The notes: a model not told the origin generated them from the sequence alone. Shown: positions 2,693-56,639, numbered from the stretch's first letter. The stretch: 64,000 bases of DNA from Escherichia coli (GCF_045037415.1 NZ_CP173438.1), one strand, 5' to 3'. Numbers and translations: made by a program.

Positions 2693-5600
2693 ATGTCGGT
2701 ATGTCTGAAACCAGGAAAAATCATTGTGCTTCTGGGCATGTTGGCAGCCTTTATGCTGTCTGACTTTGCACGGGCAGAGGTGGAATGGCAGACATATCCT
2801 GGTTCTACAGGCGAGTTTAACGGTACAGTTCCTATTGCCGATAGCGCCAGCGTACCCGTTTATCAGGGAAGCGTTCAGCTTGATCCTGCTGCATCTCATG
2901 ATGTGGCGTTTTCTGCTAAACCGAATGAATTTAGCGTTGACGATGACGCTGCTAACCTGATAGTTGCTAATCCTCAGGACAGTGAAGGCGACCAGTTTTC
3001 TACACCACCTGCGCTGCGCTGGGAAAACCAGACGCCGCCGACCGTCAGTCTGGTGTGGGCGGATGCCGCCACGCCGGATACGCCGCTCAATCCACAGCCC
3101 ATCGCCAACCGCAGCTTTTGCGCGCAAGGTCTGGCCGGGCGTTCGCTGGTGGCCTGGCCACAGATTGATGCGCAGCAGACCATTCCACTGCTTTATCTGC
3201 TGACCTCGACCGGTTATCCCTATGAGGGGACGGTGGTGCTGGCTGACCAGAAAGTGACGCTGAATATCGCGCCCGCGCAGGGCGATTTAATTTCGGTGAG
3301 CGCCAGTGGTTATAACGAAACGCTCGGCGCGGCAAAAACCACCGTTGGCGGCACTATCACGCTGACCGTCACCACCAAAGATTGTCAGGGTAACGTCGCG
3401 GGTAATATTCCATTTATTATCAAGCGTAAAGATGCCCAAAACCGTCAGGGCGCGGTAAATAATACCGCGCCGGTGGTGCTGGATAGCACCGAGTTAACGA
3501 CGACGGTAACCGAGTATCGTGGCACATCGGATGCTAACGGTACGGCAACCATCACGGTGACCCAGCCTAACGGCCCCGGTGTTAAAACGCCGCTGGTAGT
3601 CGGCATTTCCGGCATTGCACAAACCAGTGAGGCGGCGGTGATCTTTACCGTGCTCACCAGCCCGGACGTGGCGCAGGCCACGATGTGGGGCCATATGGCG
3701 GAGACGGTGGAAGCCCATGGTTACACGTTCAGTAGACCAAAACTGGCGGCGGAAGTCAGTAACGAAAATGCCACGGTCGTCGATCACAATGAAACCTGGT
3801 CCACCTTTACCTGGAGCGGCGCAGATAGCCATTGCACCGTGCTGCCGGGCATGCGCCACTTCGGCGCACTGGCGACGGTGATTCCCTCCACGGTACAGAC
3901 TGTGCTCGGCTGGCCGATGCAGGGCGATTATTACTGGTCATCGCTGGCGGGGCTTACCGGGCAGCACCATGCGGCAGATGTCTCTAACCGTGGCGAAACG
4001 CAGAAGCCGGACAGCACCACGTTCCTCGTGAGCTGCGTGGATAAGCCCGCGCCTGACGTCGAGCCGAAAATCGTCCTCACGCCAGAAAACTATGATGACA
4101 CGGCGCAGGCGATGAAAGCGAAGGTGGGCGAGGATGCGACGATGCGTCTGGCCATCACCGACACGAAAAACAACGATCAACCGCTGGCGTATTACTACTT
4201 CTCGCTACATCTGGATGATGGCGTCAATCGTAAGAATCAAACCGACACTGCCTGGGAAGCCCATCCGGTACAGATTGCTGGCGGCAGTAATTTTCGCCAG
4301 GTCGACGCACATACCTATGAAGGCATGACCGACGCCAACGGCCAGGCTTCGCTCACCCTGAGCCAGCCCGGCGGCGCGGGGGTGAAAACCCATATCACGG
4401 CAAGAATGCGCAGCGATTTTAACGCCACAGATGCCAAAGATGTGATTTTTACCGTAATCACCAGCCCGGACAGCGACAAAGCGCGGATGTGGGGCCATAT
4501 GCGCGGCATTATTGAGTCCGGCAGTTTGTATAAACGCCCGTTGCTGGCGGATGAAACCGAGCATGAATTGGGAACAGTGCGGGAAAATAACGAAGACTGG
4601 GCGCTCTACGATCAAAACACCAGTATGCAGGCGGAATGCGGCGTCGGTCATATACCGCGCCAGAGCTCACTGGAAAGCCTGTTTTCAGCCCATCCCGGTA
4701 ACGCGATTGGTACTGAATATGGCTGGCCCACTGCACAACAGGGCTATTTAAGCGCGGTGGAGCAAGCCACGCATTCATCGGTGGATCTGGGGAACGGGAG
4801 CGTCGACAGCTATTCCGGCTTTAAGCCGAATTACCTCTCCTGTTCGGGTAATGAGATGGTAGCGAATGTTGAAGTCAGCACCGATCATGATGTGTCTGTT
4901 GGCACCCAAGCGCAAGCCAAAGTGGGTGACACCATTGTGATGACCGTGCGTACGATTAACTCGCTCAATAATATCCCTGTACCCTTTACTGCATTCACCA
5001 TTACCAAAGGTATGGGGTATAACCGAGCGGGGCAGGTGAGCGGGTTTGATGACCCGAGCAGTGGTGCAATCACGATGGATAACACGCAATACGGCACATC
5101 ACAGTCATCGAAGGTTTATGCGGGAATAACCGATGCCCGGGGCGTGGCGACGGTCGAGATTAAGCAACCACAGGGCGTCGGGCTAAAAACGGTGCTGAGC
5201 GTAACGCCGGTAAATTCCTACCTGCCGAATACCGTTAACTACAGCGTTATTTTTACTACCCCAACCAGCCCGGACGTTACCGGCGCGCAGATGTGGGGCC
5301 ATATGGATGAAACGATCACCGTTGATTCATCAACCTTTACCCGGCCTAAACTGGCGTCGGAAGTCGCCAGCCCGGACGGAACCCTGACCGAAAATAACGA
5401 AATCTGGGCGCGCGTGAGCCAGGCCAATACGTCCAGTACCAGTAAAGGTGGCTGCGACACCAATATGTTGCCACGTCGTTCCCAGCTAAGTGCGCTGTAT
5501 AACGCCAACAGTGGTAACGCGGTGCAAACGGCGCACGGTTGGCCAACACAGCGTCAGCCTTACTGGAGCAACTCACCGGCAGATAAAACTCCACACTTTT

Positions 5601-31219: not shown

Positions 31220-31296
31220 CTGGCGTGGCATGCAGGATTCGAACCTGCGACCAACCGCTTAGAAGGCGGTTGCTCTGTCCAACTGAGCTAATGCCA
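31220..31296 (-). tRNA. tRNA-Arg (anticodon UCU), phage-encoded
   Basis: Folded by hand: acceptor GTGGCAT/ATGCCAC, D-arm GCTC..GAGC, anticodon stem ACCGC/GCGGT with loop CTTCTAA (anticodon TCT), T-arm GCAGG-TTCGAAT-CCTGC, discriminator G and encoded CCA. Confidence 0.85.
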
Positions 31297-31619
31297 CAAC
31301 GCTGAGAGCACTTAGCCTGTTAAGGCGCCACACTTTGTCGCGGCTCCATAAATGCTCTCATCGTTGTACCCTCGTCTCTTCCGAGGCGTCACACCGAATC
31401 GCCGGGATGGTGAATCCCCGTGCGCGGAATAAAACCGCTCGACTTGCACATTCCGGCTACCTGGTTCGTTTGCCCGAGCAAGGGAGGGTGCCCCTTAAAC
31501 GTATCCAGACCGCTATCGGCGCATGTGCCATACGCCGTACTGCTCAAAATAAAAGCTCACTCCACCTGTTCAATTTAACGACAATCCAGTCAGGTTAGTA
31601 ACCGGAATGAACTCTTTGG

Positions 31620-31634: not shown

Positions 31635-31724
31635 TAATTTGTGCGTTAAATGTCAACTATCTACGATAAATAAATCATATGTGGTTAAATTGGTAATAAT
31701 TTAATTGCGTACGGAGTCATTGAT

Positions 31725-50705: not shown

Positions 50706-50809
50706 TATCTATTCGTATTTACAGCCTTTCTATCCATATGTGGTTTTCCAGGTAATAGAATAACCAGATATGCGGCGCAACGGGTGCTGCGACTATCTGG
50801 AGATTTAAC

Positions 50810-53461
50810 ATGACGGTTTCAACCGAAGTTGACCACAACGAATACACCGGTAACGGAGCTACGACATCATTTCCGTATACCTTCCGTATTTTCAAAAAAT
50901 CCGACCTGGTTGTTCAGGTGTCTGACCTGAACGGGAACGTAACAGAATTGGTTCTGGATACTGACTACACAGTAACCAATGCTGGAGGATATAATGGCGG
51001 TAATGTAATTCTGTCGAAGGCGTTGGCTAACGGTTATCATATTTCTATATCACGAGAGCTCCCGGTTACGCAGGATACTGATTTGCGTAATCAGGGTAAG
51101 TTCTTCGCTGAGGTACATGAAGACGCGTTCGATAAACTGACAATGCTTATTCAAAAGTGTTTTTCATGGATGAGGTTAGCACTTATAAAACCAAGCATTC
51201 TGGCTAACTATTATGATGCAAAAAATAATAAGATATCAAATCTAGCAAATGCCACTGACAGAAACGATGCTGTCAATAAAGGTTATGTTGATGATCTTTT
51301 TACTGGAGGTGTAACGCCTACATCTAACAGCGCTAAAAACGATATTTTTACAAATCACCAAAGAAAGATTGTAGCTACGATGCCGCTTCTTTTTCCTGAA
51401 TATGATGCGATTATGGCTGCTAACCCGTCAGCAACTTATATGTATCCTCAAGGATTCTGCGTTAGCGAAGATTTGATATACATCACTTATCCATTTGAGC
51501 CTAAACAGACGAATAATGTCGTCGCAGTATTTAACATATCTGGTATTTATCAAGGTTATTTCTATGTTCAGGCTGGCGGCCCAGGCTTCGCTGCTGAAGG
51601 AATCGTGGTTACGTCAGACTATGGCCCCAAAAAAATGTTTGTTGGTCACACAAACGGAATACTGCGTGAATTTAATATGGAGGGGGCATTATACGGAAGC
51701 AATCTGCCTCTTGTACAAAACCATGATGTTGGATTATTCAACCAGTTCAGCTACAGAAGAGGTATATGGCTCGTTGAGCAGAATGCGCCAGAAGTAGGAC
51801 AGAAAATCACAAGAACTGTACTTGCAGTGTTCGACAGTGGTTTCAATCGCCTGTCAACTATAACGCTGCCGTTACATGATGTTGGGTATGTAACTAAAAG
51901 CACCTCACCTTATGCGCCTTATTTCAACAAGCGTCAGGGTATTGCGGTAGGTGATAACTACTTTGTCTGCGGCTATGGCGGCTTCATAGCTGATGGGGCA
52001 GGAAGCGCAGGATATAACGAATATCAGGGCAGCAAAGTTTTTAACCCTGACGGTACAAAGCGAACTGAATCAATGCTTCATCCTCAGGCCATGATGGATT
52101 TAATGAAAGCCGCAGGATTGAACGTCACTCGCATAGAAAATGAAGGCGTTTGTGTTTCTCAGGATGGAAAATCCATTTATTCACTTTACATTCATCAGGA
52201 AAGAACTGGCTCTGAACCTTACAATTCAGGTTTGGTTATTTTCGAAGATTTCTCCACTGATAAAGATGCTATCGATTTTACACCTGCATCCAGGCTTTAC
52301 CGCGGATTTGATATCGATCACGCGAGCATTGGGGTATATCCCCGTAGTGCGAAGGGGATTGTTAACCCTGTAGATGGTACGTTGTTCACTAACATGACTG
52401 AAATTCTTCGCTATATGCAGGAGATGAGTCAGAAGGCATTTAATTTTTACACAGGGACTGTCAGCATTGCTGATATATCTGGCGTGGCAATCCCTTCCAG
52501 CACATATGTTGAAATACTGAATGCGAATAATCAGACTTTTATAGTCAACTATTATTCATCTGATAGTGGCATTAGTTATTTGGTTGCAACTAATCCTTCT
52601 GGTGACTTTGTATTTGTGCGCCAGCGACCGGCACAGTGGGCATCTAACTTAACCATTCAGCAAAACGCAGATCCTGATACAAACCAATTAAACCGCATCA
52701 CTGCATCATCATATGCCGGTGCAACTACAAACTCTCAGAAAATATTGGTCCTTGACCAGCAGGCTACAGCTAGCGCAAATAGCTTGGTATTGGGCGGTAG
52801 TTCTTCTGTGTTTAGGTCTGCCACCACGGTGGATATTGCATGCAACAGCGACCCGACAGCATTGGGAGGAACCATACGCTGGCGGTTTTATGATACAGGT
52901 CTTCGCCCGTTTGCTGACAATACCTATAATTTTGGTCAGGCATCGTTTCGTATTAAAGACGCCTACTTTGCAAATGCCCCAACCGTTTCATCAGATGCCA
53001 CGCTGAAAACCAATCCCGAGGCAATATCAGATTTAAGTGAAATGCTTTCTTCTGATAGAGACAGCATTCTTGATGCCTGGGGCGATATTTCTGTTGTGGC
53101 GTATCGATGGCTCGACGCTATATCCATGAAGGGCGATGGTGCCAGATGGCATTTTGGCGTCATGGCTCAGCAGGTAAGGGATGTATTCTTGGCGCACGGA
53201 ATTGATGGAACCAGATTTGGCCTTCTTTGCTATGACGAGTGGGATGATATTTTTGAGCCGGTAATCGCGACTAAAGAGATTACCGATACGTCTGGTGAGT
53301 TGGTCACCGTCGAATATGACACCGGAGAACAGAGGCTGGTTAAAAAAGCGGGTAGTTCATGGGGTATACGGCCTGACCAGTGCGCTTGGCTTGAGGCTGC
53401 ATATCAGCGCCGTCGATGCGATCGTATTGAAGAGCGACTCGAACTATTGGAATCAAAATAA
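50810..53461 (+). CDS. Tailspike / tail fiber with C-terminal intramolecular chaperone (peptidase S74-like) domain
   Basis: 883 aa; conserved phage fiber N-terminal anchor (..YTGNGATTSFPYTFRIF..); C-terminal ..DAWGDISVVAYRWLDAI..GDGARWHFGVMAQQVRDVF.. matches auto-cleaving chaperone domains of tailspikes as recalled. Confidence 0.8.
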   Translation: MTVSTEVDHNEYTGNGATTSFPYTFRIFKKSDLVVQVSDLNGNVTELVLDTDYTVTNAGGYNGGNVILSKALANGYHISISRELPVTQDTDLRNQGKFFAEVHEDAFDKLTMLIQKCFSWMRLALIKPSILANYYDAKNNKISNLANATDRNDAVNKGYVDDLFTGGVTPTSNSAKNDIFTNHQRKIVATMPLLFPEYDAIMAANPSATYMYPQGFCVSEDLIYITYPFEPKQTNNVVAVFNISGIYQGYFYVQAGGPGFAAEGIVVTSDYGPKKMFVGHTNGILREFNMEGALYGSNLPLVQNHDVGLFNQFSYRRGIWLVEQNAPEVGQKITRTVLAVFDSGFNRLSTITLPLHDVGYVTKSTSPYAPYFNKRQGIAVGDNYFVCGYGGFIADGAGSAGYNEYQGSKVFNPDGTKRTESMLHPQAMMDLMKAAGLNVTRIENEGVCVSQDGKSIYSLYIHQERTGSEPYNSGLVIFEDFSTDKDAIDFTPASRLYRGFDIDHASIGVYPRSAKGIVNPVDGTLFTNMTEILRYMQEMSQKAFNFYTGTVSIADISGVAIPSSTYVEILNANNQTFIVNYYSSDSGISYLVATNPSGDFVFVRQRPAQWASNLTIQQNADPDTNQLNRITASSYAGATTNSQKILVLDQQATASANSLVLGGSSSVFRSATTVDIACNSDPTALGGTIRWRFYDTGLRPFADNTYNFGQASFRIKDAYFANAPTVSSDATLKTNPEAISDLSEMLSSDRDSILDAWGDISVVAYRWLDAISMKGDGARWHFGVMAQQVRDVFLAHGIDGTRFGLLCYDEWDDIFEPVIATKEITDTSGELVTVEYDTGEQRLVKKAGSSWGIRPDQCAWLEAAYQRRRCDRIEERLELLESK

Positions 53462-53558
53462 GACCAAATTTAGGTAATTATTATCCGTAAATGGTTTATT
53501 GTGTATGATGGACCTCATCTTCTAAGGGGGTTTTTATGCACAATAAACGGTGGTTACC

Positions 53559-53960
53559 ATGAATGGCACGGTTACGGCGGATTCACTGAATCAAGGGTTA
53601 AGCTTGGGTGCGCTGGCCTCTGTCGTCTACGGCGTTCCGCCAGAGGTGGCTCTCGGTGCTCTGGCTGGTGCGGTAATATTTGTTACCTCTGCTGTAGAGT
53701 ATCCTGTTCGTCGTCGTGTACTCTTGTCGATACTCAGCTTTCTTTGTGGTCTTCTCTTTTACAAACCAACAACATCAATTCTTATCGGAATAGCCAGCAT
53801 GATACCTACCATCACGCAGGACTCTTTCGAGAAAGGGATTGTTTTCTCTGCTGGCGCATTCGTGTCAGCAATTGTCGCAGTGCGAATTGGTATATGGCTC
53901 TATCACCGTTCTGATAATCCACGCCAGTTAATTCCTGGGAGAAAAGGCGATGGTAACTAA
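53559..53960 (+). CDS. Holin-like membrane protein
   Basis: Multiple predicted TM segments; first gene of the lysis cassette; short leader ORF upstream. Confidence 0.45.
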   Translation: MNGTVTADSLNQGLSLGALASVVYGVPPEVALGALAGAVIFVTSAVEYPVRRRVLLSILSFLCGLLFYKPTTSILIGIASMIPTITQDSFEKGIVFSAGAFVSAIVAVRIGIWLYHRSDNPRQLIPGRKGDGN

Positions 53961-54258
53961 TGAGCTTGTTTTGCTTATCACCAATGCAATTATTTGTACT
54001 GGCATAGCAATTCGCGTTGTCACATTCCGGCGTAACGGCTCTCAACATCGAAGATGGGGAGGGTGGCTTGCTTATTTCCTTATTGTTGCTGCGGCCAGTA
54101 TTCCTGTTCGTGTCGCCTATGCAATCTGGTTACGTACGCCAATGGCTGTGGATTTATCTGAGGTCATTATCAACGCTGTCATGCTTGCCGCGGTTATTAA
54201 AACACGCGGTAACGTTGTTCAGATTTTCAAAACATCGAGGTCTAAACATGGAGATTAA
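53950..54258 (+). CDS. Holin-like membrane protein 2
   Basis: 102 aa with 2-3 hydrophobic segments and charged C-terminus; immediately upstream of endolysin. Confidence 0.5.
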
Positions 54259-54877
54259 ACAATTCCAGCGAGCTGCTGGTATTAGCGAGGCTCTGGCCGC
54301 ACGCTGGTTCTCGCATATAACTTCTGCGATGAAAGAGTTTGGTATCAGAAAACCCGAAGATCAGGCAATGTTTATTGCTCAGGTCGGGCATGAGTCTGGT
54401 GGCTTCACCAGGTTGCAGGAGAATTTCAATTACAGCGTCACCGGACTGGCTAACTTCGTTCGTGCCGGTCGTCTTACTCAGGGACAGGCTAACGCATTGG
54501 GTCGTCGTGCAGGCGAGCCACCATTGCCACCTGAGCGCCAGCGTGCGATTGCCAATCTGGTGTACAGCAAACGCATGGGGAACAATGCCTCTGGTGATGG
54601 CTGGAATTACCGTGGCCGCGGACTTATCCAGATTACCGGTTTGAATAACTATCGTGATTGCGGAAACGGCCTGAAAGTGGACCTGCTGGAGAATCCTGAA
54701 CTGTTGGCGCAGGACGAATACGCGGCTCGTAGCGCGGCGTGGTTCTTCTCCAGCAAAGGTTGCATGAAGTATACCGGCGATATTGCACGTGTAACTCTGA
54801 TTATCAATGGTGGCAGGAATGGCATCGACGACCGGCGCGTGCGGTACATCACTGCCAGTAAGGTGCTGGCGGTATGA
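54248..54877 (+). CDS. Endolysin, glycoside hydrolase family 19 (chitinase-like)
   Basis: ..[28 protein letters not shown].. GH19 signature; start at MEIKQFQ (the ORF-track 54017 start is an upstream extension). Confidence 0.85.
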
Positions 54878-55371
54878 TCTGGGCATTCGCAAAAGCATAC
54901 CGGAAACAGTTGGTTGTCATGGCGATGCTTGCTGTTCTGGTCATATCAGGAGTTGTTGCCTGGAATGTGCATGGCAGCCGCCAGTACGATGCCGGGTATG
55001 CTCAGGCGAAGGAAGATCAGAAACAGGCTGATGATAAGTTAAGGTCACAGCGTGAGCAGGAGAAAACACAAATTGAACGTGAAGCACAATCCCGTATCGA
55101 TGCGGCGCGTGCTGATGCTGAGTATGCTAATTCCGCTGCTGACAGCATGCGCGCCGAGCTTGACAAAACCAGGCGGCTCGCCGAACACTATACCGGATCT
55201 TTCCCCCCTGGCACGCCAGCCAGCAAGGTCATCGGTGTGCTCGCCGACATGCTTGAAGAAAGCAACCGAGTTTACAACGCAACAGCAGCTGAGGCTGAAA
55301 AGTATCGTATCGCAGGGGAATTCTGCGAGCAGCAATACGATTCACTGAAGAAGCAAAAATCGTGGCACTGA
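54874..55371 (+). CDS. Spanin inner-membrane subunit (Rz-like)
   Basis: N-terminal TM helix followed by charged coiled-coil region; follows endolysin. Confidence 0.65.
55100..55348 (+). CDS. Spanin outer-membrane lipoprotein subunit (Rz1-like), embedded in the +1 frame of Rz
   Basis: Lipobox LLTAC, Pro-rich mature region; start uncertain (55100 or 55115). Confidence 0.5.
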   Translation: MRRVLMLSMLIPLLTACAPSLTKPGGSPNTIPDLSPLARQPARSSVCSPTCLKKATEFTTQQQLRLKSIVSQGNSASSNTIH

Positions 55372-55458
55372 TTTCCGGTGACGGTATATAAAACGGTACG
55401 GTGAAAATCAGGTTACAGAAAGTTGTTACCAGTCAATTGGTTATGCATGCCGTAAATA

Positions 55459-55475
55459 ATTGAGTGGGAATGATT
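55459..55475. repeat. attR core (17-bp direct repeat)
   Basis: Identical to 15455-15471; followed by host-type guaA-distal sequence and terminator. Confidence 0.8.
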
Positions 55476-55501
55476 TGACCCTGCACTATGAATGAACAAA
55501 A

Positions 55502-55527
55502 CCCTCTGTTACTACAGAGGGTTTTTT
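55502..55527 (+). terminator. Rho-independent terminator (native guaA terminator displaced to attR)
   Basis: ccctctg-ttacta-cagaggg plus TTTTTT. Confidence 0.65.
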
Positions 55528-55565
55528 ATCCTAAAGAATTATAGGTTTGAAGTTACTAACATCGT

Positions 55566-56105
55566 TTAGTTAAACCAGCTATCTGATTTATTCTCTTCTG
55601 CTTTACCCACGCTTTTCATCAGATCGCGACCGCCTTCAGTCATATTTCTGTTTGCGTCAGCTTCAGATTGCACCACATCGGTTTGCGCAGCTTTGTGCTT
55701 CAGTTCCTGATCGATAAATTCGTTTTCGCGCTTAACGCGGGCTTCTTCTTTCGCCAGCGCCAGTTTTTGTTTCTGAATCTCTAAGCTACGTAGCTCATCT
55801 TCATAACTTTGATCGCGTTTTTTGTCCGCAGTGGCTTCGGCGTCCAGTTTATCCTGACGAGCTTTCTTATTCGCTGCTGCCGTTGCCGCTCTTTTATTAG
55901 CCGCGGCCTGGGCGTTTGCGCGACGTTGCTTCTCTTGCTGGATTTCCCTGTTGCGCTCCGCGACCCATTCGTCATGCTGCCTTTGCTCTTCATTTTTACC
56001 TTGCTGTTCCGCTTCTGCGACAGCCGAGAGTTGATCCTGCAATGATGAGGCGATAGCCGGATAGCTTAAGGAGGCTAAGATGGCGCAAAGAAAAACTTTC
56101 TTCAT
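55566..56105 (-). CDS. yfgI: YfgI (periplasmic protein, signal peptide, Lys/Ala/Gln-rich)
   Basis: 179 aa MKKVFLCAILASLSYPAIASS..; conserved neighbour of guaA in E. coli. Confidence 0.8.
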   Translation of the reverse strand: MKKVFLCAILASLSYPAIASSLQDQLSAVAEAEQQGKNEEQRQHDEWVAERNREIQQEKQRRANAQAAANKRAATAAANKKARQDKLDAEATADKKRDQSYEDELRSLEIQKQKLALAKEEARVKRENEFIDQELKHKAAQTDVVQSEADANRNMTEGGRDLMKSVGKAEENKSDSWFN

Positions 56106-56120
56106 GACTCCTCCTGATTA

Positions 56121-56639
56121 TTAGCTCTTTTCAGGACATTTGGTATTTGGCTGAATACGCGTTTCGTTATACGTCGTGGTAATAACAACGGCTAAACCTG
56201 TCGTAAACTGGCACTCTTTACCCACTTGGGTGGAGGTATACACTTTGGTGCCTTCCTTATATGTTAAAGAAACACCTTCCACTAAGGTTTTATCATTCAC
56301 CATAGAACCCGCTGCCGCGCCTACAGCTCCGCCGCCAACTGCACCTGCCGTCGTTCCGGAATTGCTGCCAGACCCGACGTTGTGGCCGATAACACCGCCA
56401 GCGACAGCGCCAATAAGCGCGCCGAAGGCTTGTGCGTTCCGTTTATTTTGGGCGTTGTCTACGGCAACTTTTGCGGGAAGAATGGAAATAATATTAACGG
56501 TTTTAGTTTCTTGTTTGGTATTCAGTTGATCGGTTTGATAAACATCGGCGGCATGATCATCAGCATTTGACTGGCATCCTGCCAGAGTGAATGACGCTAA
56601 CATTGCCACAGGCAGAAGACATTTTTTAAATTTCATCAC
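56121..56639 (-). CDS. yfgH: YfgH outer-membrane lipoprotein (glycine-zipper)
   Basis: 172 aa, lipobox LAGC, Gly-rich GxxxG repeats. Confidence 0.8.
   Translation of the reverse strand: MMKFKKCLLPVAMLASFTLAGCQSNADDHAADVYQTDQLNTKQETKTVNIISILPAKVAVDNAQNKRNAQAFGALIGAVAGGVIGHNVGSGSNSGTTAGAVGGGAVGAAAGSMVNDKTLVEGVSLTYKEGTKVYTSTQVGKECQFTTGLAVVITTTYNETRIQPNTKCPEKS

Follow-up and report, generated by a model that had tools for sequence, protein, structure and literature searches.

A conserved leader with a predicted RNA hairpin and a mini-ORF precedes the first lysis gene of an epsilon15-like Escherichia coli prophage and may gate its translation

The lysis gene of phage MS2 has a poor initiation site of its own and is translated by ribosomes that terminate nearby, and in the type I toxin system hok/mok a small membrane-damaging protein needs an overlapping upstream frame whose ribosome-binding site (RBS) is controlled by folding. 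In phage T4, RBS-masking hairpins are bypassed by internal late promoters at e (lysozyme), soc, 49 and I-TevI (PMC3014915). The early read-through RNA of gene e is untranslatable, and late promoters situated in the 5' strand of the hairpin give a translatable RNA (PMC3014915). Gene S of phage lambda has a dual start, giving S107 and S105, together with the upstream sdi stem-loop (PMC3359269). Coupling to an upstream ORF (uORF) is described for iraD (PMC5574718), uORF coupling and RBS occlusion in bacteria are treated in that paper and in PMC13285730, and the coat/lysis junction of phage GA serves as a model for termination-reinitiation (PMC9955659).

How long a phage infection cycle lasts is set by the control of holin production. 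To our knowledge, few mechanisms of holin control are known beyond the dual start of lambda. The leader described here joins two known devices, namely an RBS-masking hairpin with a putative internal promoter and a mini-ORF that would be coupled to the gene behind it. No description of this leader was found in the literature searched, which did not include the original epsilon15 genome paper. The leader precedes the lysis cassette of an epsilon15/phiV10-like (Uetakevirus) prophage of E. coli, and it was analysed in a stretch of 64,000 nucleotides (NZ_CP173438.1), called the window below, from whose first letter all coordinates are counted. The features that will be discussed are the following, with the basis of each assignment given in brackets.

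53486–53496, + strand: late-promoter-like box CGTAAATGGTT, the window variant of CATATGTGGTT (recurrence at other late operons)
53494–53516, + strand: 5' arm of the hairpin (fold of 53490–53550)
53504–53509, + strand: −10-like hexamer TATGAT inside the 5' arm (fixed distance from the box)
53517–53526, + strand: hairpin loop of 10 nt, holding AAG, the first three bases of the Shine-Dalgarno sequence (SD) of the mini-ORF (fold)
53524–53530, + strand: AAGGGGG, SD of the mini-ORF (pairing energy against the 16S 3' end)
53527–53548, + strand: 3' arm of the hairpin, with most of the leader SD, the spacer, the AUG and mini-ORF codons 2–4 (fold, covariation)
53536–53562, + strand: mini-ORF, MHNKRWLP followed by a stop (read from the sequence)
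53549–53553, + strand: GGTGG, weak SD of the holin-like gene, inside the mini-ORF and containing GTG 53550 (−5.8 kcal/mol)
53559–53960, + strand: first gene of the lysis cassette, a Phage_holin_8 membrane protein homologous to epsilon15 gp23 (Pfam)
53950–54258, + strand: second membrane protein, Phage_holin_3_7 (Pfam; annotated as holin in epsilon15 and phiV10)
54248–54877, + strand: GH19 endolysin (Pfam, PGAP)
54874–55371, + strand: Rz-like i-spanin (DUF2514) with an embedded Rz1-like ORF (Pfam, annotation)

The product of the first gene matches Phage_holin_8 (PF16931) with 45.7 bits against a gathering cut-off of 26.4 (E = 8.7e-12), and its holin activity is putative; the RefSeq name of the epsilon15 homologue is only 'membrane protein'. 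In the E. coli 2/0 chromosome, which is 100% identical, PGAP starts a 'putative holin' at ATG 53559 and annotates nothing upstream of it, and this start aligns in 12 relatives. A 137-codon GTG ORF in the third frame over the gene (53501–53914, + strand) is taken as spurious, since the conserved frame that matches Pfam begins at 53559. The N-terminal ca 12 residues of the holin-like protein (53559–53630) are MNGTVTADSLNQG, compared to the usual MSAQLTSESLNQW, and DNA similarity to many relatives starts only near 53631, which looks like a mosaic joint inside the gene. On the upstream side, the tail-fibre gene of the window prophage is 33 nt away. As to the prophage as a whole, its right end falls within 55371–55566, between the Rz stop and the host gene yfgI (55566–56105, minus strand), and a tRNA-Arg (anticodon TCT; 31221–31297, minus strand) is located inside it, between the terminase region and the structural operon.

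The sequence-only reading had pointed out an eight-codon ORF, MHNKRWLP, with the SD aaggggg and a TGA overlapping the ATG of the holin-like gene, and all of these are confirmed in the sequence. The codons are ATG (53536–53538), CAC AAT AAA CGG TGG TTA CCA and TGA (53560–53562). A 5-nt spacer of five T's separates AAGGGGG from the ATG, and the bases that the stop shares with ATG 53559–53561 are the last two of the latter (ccATGAatg). To place the strength of this SD in context, every ATG of the window was scored on both strands by pairing the 14 nt upstream of it with the 3' end of the 16S rRNA. The predicted SD:anti-SD energy of the mini-ORF is −11.8 kcal/mol, a value that only 2 ATGs of the 64-kb window attain when both strands are counted; −9 kcal/mol is reached by only 17. 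ATGs of short ORFs at −11 kcal/mol or below number only 3 in 128 kb, that is, ca 0.023 per kb per strand. Since such strong SDs are this rare, a chance site within 25 nt of a given gene start is very unlikely.

The leader was then compared among 109 related loci (19 phage records, 7 E. coli chromosomes, 80 IMG/VR contigs and 3 further assemblies) from phages and prophages of Escherichia, Salmonella, Klebsiella and Enterobacter, which correspond to 68 distinct leaders. An SD with an ATG at −22 to −25 from the holin-like gene is kept in 59 of the 68, with an SD of −9 kcal/mol or below in 57 cases and a moderate one in 2, and three further leaders retain the ATG with a weaker SD. In the relatives the SD reads GGGGG, GGAGG or AGGAGG, the spacer to the AUG is 5–7 nt, and the mini-ORF has 6–14 codons. 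The leader is far better conserved than the flanking intergenic DNA, and the lysis genes of the phages that bear it share only ca 75–80% DNA identity. We consider it likely that the leader RBS is under selection. A Uetakevirus-type lysis cassette with the leader is also found in a 138-kb record classified as Vequintavirus (L013, phage BP9, PP488543.1; 125329–126656), which may be a chimeric assembly or a mixed lysate.

The encoded peptide is variable. Codon 2 of the mini-ORF is CAC, CAT, AAC, CGT, CGC or CTC, and codon 3 is AGT, ATT, AAT, GTT or AGC, mostly through changes at the second position; the variation in both codons is non-synonymous. The phiv142-3 clade has a deletion of 1 nt that puts the mini-ORF into another frame, MHINGGKHVSSTNQ followed by a stop, with the SD, the ATG and the nucleotides AAACGGTGG unchanged. 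On account of the frame shift in this clade and the non-synonymous variation, a functional peptide was rejected, and AAA(C/T)GGTGG is nearly invariant as nucleotides in both frames of the mini-ORF. As judged from these comparisons, what is conserved is the architecture, that is, an RBS, a short ORF and an end near the holin AUG, and not the peptide.

The end of the mini-ORF falls into a small number of positions. In all relatives with a mini-ORF, the first base of its stop is at −5, +1, +8, +13 or +20 relative to the holin AUG: at −5 in phiV10, at +1 in the window and L109, at +13 in 47 leaders and at +20 in 8. As a whole, the stop codon never falls outside the range from −5 to +22. The +13 stop is formed by holin codons 5–6, which read CTA, TTA, ATA or CTG followed by ACN (ATG ACG in L115), such that the first base and the amino acid vary and the TAA or TGA stays. 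Lineages with the alternative N-terminus MN... (the window, L109 and L108) have no +13 stop, and there the ATGA overlap supplies one. These patterns are suggestive of selection on the +13 stop, but they are not conclusive, since lineages with no need of NTA ACN retain it as well. The AUG of the mini-ORF precedes the holin-like AUG by 23 nt. The holin SD, which is located immediately 3' of the hairpin stem, is weak but not absent; in ZX5-type leaders it is AGGAG with −7.4 kcal/mol, the strongest, compared to −5.8 kcal/mol for GGTGG elsewhere.

Several relatives can be considered as natural knock-outs. In ZX5-type leaders ATA replaces the ATG, there is no SD and the mini-ORF is lost; in BUCT711 the holin-like gene follows directly after the tailspike stop; the L069 leader reads ATG TGA, that is, a start followed by a stop; and the leader RBS is absent from L024/25 and L026, whose holin SD is weak. 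The leader element is thus common yet dispensable. Distant Phage_holin_8 homologues (37–39% identity; L111, L113, L114 and L116) have other leaders and none of this type, and the architecture is therefore confined to the epsilon15-like group of Enterobacteriaceae phages.

Concerning the RNA structure, the inverted repeat 53494–53506 / 53536–53548 is part of a predicted hairpin (53494–53548) of 22 bp, arranged as 15 + 7 bp with one unpaired base, with an energy of −24.8 kcal/mol. The fold of 53490–53550 has z = −6.96, the shuffled sequences giving −9.1 ± 2.3 kcal/mol with 0/200 as stable, and the 3' arm includes four of the five G's of the SD. The same hairpin is predicted for phiV10 (−30.2 kcal/mol, z = −5.8), for epsilon15 (−35.1 kcal/mol, z = −6.0; 22 + 2 bp) and for a Klebsiella phage (−33.4 kcal/mol, z = −6.3), and also for L023, L109, L108 and the frame-shifted clade, in which both arms are changed. 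Across the window, phiV10, epsilon15, Klebsiella phages and L109, z is between −5 and −7. In an alignment of the 59 distinct leaders that bear the mini-ORF, the 24 stem pairs are formed in 92.4% of the cells, compared to 40–56% when the partner is slid by 1–3 columns, and the double-change cells number 33, compared to 11.3 ± 2.7 in the shuffles (0/500). From the folding and covariation models, a conserved RNA hairpin very probably exists at the leader.

The abundant G·U pairs indicate that the structure belongs to RNA of the + strand, and not to a DNA cruciform or an antisense RNA. A reading of the inverted repeat as a DNA cruciform or operator is disfavoured in the same way, as the many G·U pairs are workable only in + strand RNA. 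A scan of 52500–56500 against Rfam 15 gave no match at E ≤ 1. Another option considered was an intrinsic terminator, made up of the upper stem and the U-run in the window, but it was rejected since relatives have no U-tract. Nor does the leader have the build of a leader-peptide transcription attenuator, with terminator and antiterminator alternatives between ORF and gene: the leader ORF overlaps the gene, no terminator-like site was found on the + strand in 53200–55700, and no U-tract follows the stem. An extension helix between the holin AUG and an upstream CAUA is 81% paired with covariation not above the shuffles, and it is not claimed. In the window only, GGUAAUUAUU (53473–53482) pairs with GGUGGUUACC (53550–53559), which lengthens the stem. 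This pairing would also hide the holin SD; it is not conserved in the relatives and is not claimed either.

The consequences for the accessibility of the two RBSs can be expressed as opening energies. For the leader RBS the energy is 15–23 kcal/mol in most RNAs that contain the 5' arm (7–23 kcal/mol across the 12 tested), compared to mostly 3–4.5 kcal/mol, and up to 11, when the 5' arm is absent. For the holin RBS it is mostly 6–11 kcal/mol in the long RNAs (2.6–11.1 overall) and mostly 4–6.5 kcal/mol in the short ones, with a few outliers. The computation establishes in this way the energetic masking of the leader RBS, alongside the anatomy of the leader, its conservation and the predicted structure with its covariation.

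We now consider the promoter-like sequence of the 5' arm. The exact 11-mer CATATGTGGTT is present in the window only at 31676–31686 and 50735–50745, the former preceding the first structural-operon ORF by 50 nt and the latter the tail-fibre gene by 75 nt. The exact copies in epsilon15 are those of the structural operon and the lysis leader, and phiV10 has 7 sites with at most one mismatch, compared to 0.76 expected, the structural, tail-fibre and lysis positions being among them. After a constant 6 nt, the box is followed by GTAATA or GTATGA, with GTAATA at the two other sites of the window; the hexamer of phiV10 is TATAAT. CATATGTGGTT with GTAATA or GTATGA 6 nt further on is also seen at 2988 and 24751 in L107 and at 3308, 20921 and 24739 in L110, and in three genomes CATATGTGGTT is 50–75 nt upstream of the first structural, tail-fibre and lysis genes. 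At the tail-fibre site of the window, an inverted copy of CATATGTGGTT (50762–50772, minus strand) makes up an inverted repeat around the −10-like sequence.

Two positions of the leader are conserved in a way that goes with this element. The last T of the −10-like hexamer is invariant (58/58), with a pairing partner that is complementary in only 30 of 59 leaders, and G17 of the alignment is outside the hairpin yet invariant. From its recurrence, CATATGTGGTT is probably a late promoter or an activator box of these phages, and a PerC-like activator and an epsilon15 gp49-like regulator are candidates for its regulator. A scan with the sigma-70 consensus found no complete −35/−10 promoter on the + strand near the leader, and no −35 element. 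This means that the promoter, if real, is a putative, activator-dependent and late one. The genes that precede the lysis cassette of epsilon15 and phiV10 are encoded on the opposite strand, and a promoter must therefore lie in the leader spacer. The putative start, ca 7 nt after TATGAT, would be at the top of the 5' arm, which means that such an RNA could not form the hairpin.

These results suggest that the leader is a two-step translational gate on the first lysis gene. Read-through RNAs from upstream, here from the tail-fibre gene 33 nt away, would fold the hairpin, and the folded hairpin would close the leader RBS, such that little holin-like protein is made. RNAs begun at the embedded promoter would start near the top of the 5' arm and would not be able to fold the hairpin, and the strong RBS at the 5' end of these short RNAs would load ribosomes. 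The ribosomes on the mini-ORF would then cross the SD and AUG of the holin-like gene, terminate there (at ATGA in the window) and re-initiate at the holin AUG, helped by GGUGG, with the peptide MHNKRWLP itself playing no role. In this scheme we infer the promoter with its start point, the translation of the mini-ORF on the open RNA and the re-start at the holin AUG. The full chain, from the masked leader RBS through the internal promoter to the coupling of the mini-ORF to the holin, is put forward tentatively, with confidence that falls slightly short of even.

The sequence-only reading had suggested that the mini-ORF may time or tune holin translation. This suggestion stands in part: the strong and conserved RBS, the nearby stop and the weak holin SD fit it, and so does the stronger holin SD of the ZX5 type, in which there is no mini-ORF, while the coupling itself is something we infer only. 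It is important to point out that some observations speak against parts of the proposed chain. In most relatives the stop is 13–22 nt past the holin AUG, and re-initiation would thus need backward movement of the ribosome, which is a known but less efficient process. L024 and L026 combine an absent mini-ORF with a weak holin SD. The tail-fibre gene upstream appears to use the same late box in the window prophage, which makes the biological benefit of distinguishing read-through from promoter-born RNA questionable. Finally, a ribosome on the mini-ORF AUG could occlude the holin RBS 23 nt downstream, such that the net effect would be negative.

One can also speculate on a more far-reaching reading of the same data, in which a three-layer leader, with a promoter in one arm, an RBS in the other and a relaying mini-ORF, times Uetakevirus lysis in place of a dual-start antiholin. 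We regard this reading as possible but doubtful. If it were true, only promoter-born or RNase III-opened RNA would start the lysis clock, and the loss in the ZX5 type, the frame-shifted clade and the start-stop leader of L069 would be evolutionary re-settings of this clock.

A different outcome of the occlusion mentioned above, which we consider unlikely, is that the mini-ORF is translated but with a negative effect. The captured ribosomes would cover the holin SD and AUG, with a fraction of them re-initiating, and as a consequence the first lysis protein would be throttled compared to the products of the downstream genes and lysis would be delayed. The geometry allows for this, as the starts are 23 nt apart and fall under one ribosome footprint, and the strength of the leader SD is twice that of the holin SD; occlusion of RBSs by upstream RBSs is moreover reported for bacteria (PMC13285730). 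However, a weak SD alone would suffice to lower the expression, the conserved position of the stop beside the AUG fits re-initiation better, and the lineage without the mini-ORF has a stronger, not a weaker, holin SD.

Another scenario, to which we also assign a rather low probability, is that the hairpin alone matters, as an RNase III processing site, a 5' stabiliser or some other RNA signal. The G-run and the AUG would then be by-products of a stem that is complementary to the promoter, the mini-ORF AUG being paired with the TAT of TATGAT, and the mini-ORF would rarely or never be translated. The size of the stem, 22–24 bp or about two turns of mostly uninterrupted double-stranded RNA, is that of an RNase III substrate, and the GenBank record of epsilon15 labels the spot 'RNaseIII, mRNA processing', a label that is a prediction and not a mapped cut. 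A hairpin also persists at this place in ZX5-type, L024 and L026 leaders, where there is no mini-ORF, and in lineages with neither leader SD nor ATG, which indicates that it has a role of its own. At the leader position of two of these E. coli prophage lineages (L024:445–535 and L026:410–500) the hairpin is a different and shorter one with no leader RBS, and in L024 a U-rich run comes after it, which gives it the look of a terminator.

What speaks against a role of the hairpin alone is the way in which the RBS has been kept. SD, spacer and AUG are retained jointly in 59 of the 68 leaders, across two frames and several SD variants. Of the three pairs made by the mini-ORF AUG, only the 5' partners vary and the AUG is invariant. 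Its G faces the first T of TATGAT in a G·U wobble, although an A would give the better pair at this position. In ZX5, the SD and the AUG were lost together and the lower stem was retained. On the strength of this sequence variation, the mini-ORF AUG is selected beyond its pairing.

The sequence-only reading had also raised the possibility that GTG 53550 is an alternative start. It would give MVTMNG... beside the MNG... started at ATG 53559, the two proteins having opposing activities as S107 and S105 of lambda. Two in-frame starts within 1–3 codons of each other are indeed present (GTG GTT ACC ATG, with no stop between), the GTG is in frame in the relatives as well, and BP9 and L026 have an ATG at the equivalent place, from which BP9 is annotated. 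However, no separate SD precedes the GTG, which sits inside the GGTGG that serves the ATG, and at a distance of 19 nt AAGGGGG is not a workable SD for it. Its reading frame, shared by all relatives, is a trivial outcome of the fixed spacing of 9 nt. The extensions of two residues (VT, VI, VA, VD and EN) never contain Lys or Arg and some are acidic, whereas a Lys/Arg-bearing N-terminal extension is the defining trait of lambda-type antiholins (PMC3359269). In addition, ZX5-type leaders have no in-frame start, and PGAP and the phage records start at the ATG. A dual-start holin/antiholin pair is thus highly improbable. A programmed frameshift that would carry ribosomes from the mini-ORF into the frame of the holin, with KR added N-terminally, was rejected: epsilon15 has a TAA in the holin frame at −15, no slippery site is present, and the geometry is variable. 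For only eight codons, a fortuitous ATG and stop in the intergenic spacer would be arithmetically plausible, as about half of random sequences should have a stop within 16 codons. This reading is effectively refuted by the strength and rarity of the SD and the conservation over 109 loci, and its probability is negligible.

The leader is found in widespread temperate phages of E. coli (including ST131-type strains), Salmonella, Klebsiella and Enterobacter, and natural variants already serve as the key 'mutants' of the gate. For annotation, the lesson is that a protein-coding gene is not necessarily what the strongest SD of a lysis region serves, and it should be noted that a conserved RBS is situated within the 'RNaseIII site' feature of epsilon15. 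For the genus, the recurring CATATGTGGTT box offers a candidate signature of late promoters.

We finally compare the leader with the known systems. As in T4 gene e, a lysis-related gene is found behind a hairpin that hides an SD and an AUG in long read-through transcripts, and a promoter element, here a putative one, is located in the DNA of the 5' strand, such that promoter-proximal RNAs are without the inhibitory arm. Unlike the case of gene e, the masked RBS is that of the mini-ORF and not that of the lysis gene, which means that a coupling step is interposed. Further differences from gene e are that the proposed promoter is not of the T4 late type, that the phage is temperate, and that the read-through RNA comes from a late tail-fibre gene and not from early genes. 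The leader resembles lambda S in that an RNA structure at the 5' end of a holin gene would govern the choice of initiation and tune lysis (PMC3359269). It differs from it in that there is no in-frame extension with Lys or Arg, the upstream start being in another frame and giving a separate peptide, and in that the stem is far longer (22 bp) and hides a whole upstream RBS.

With the RNase III hairpins of the T7 R sites and the lambda N leader, the hairpin shares a stem of ca 22 bp, a single unpaired base and a position immediately upstream of a gene, but here the predicted stem encloses a complete RBS and overlaps a promoter-like sequence. In common with hok/mok and iraD there is an overlapping upstream frame with its RBS under the control of mRNA folding, on which the downstream gene would depend; however, neither an antisense RNA nor a CsrA site is evident at the leader, and mok overlaps most of hok whereas the leader ORF has only 6–14 codons. 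Like the MS2 and GA lysis genes, the holin-like gene has a weak start that we propose to be served by termination-reinitiation. In those phages the upstream frame is the coat gene, which makes a real protein, whereas its counterpart at the leader is a dedicated mini-ORF, and no other SD of the region is as strong as that of the mini-ORF.
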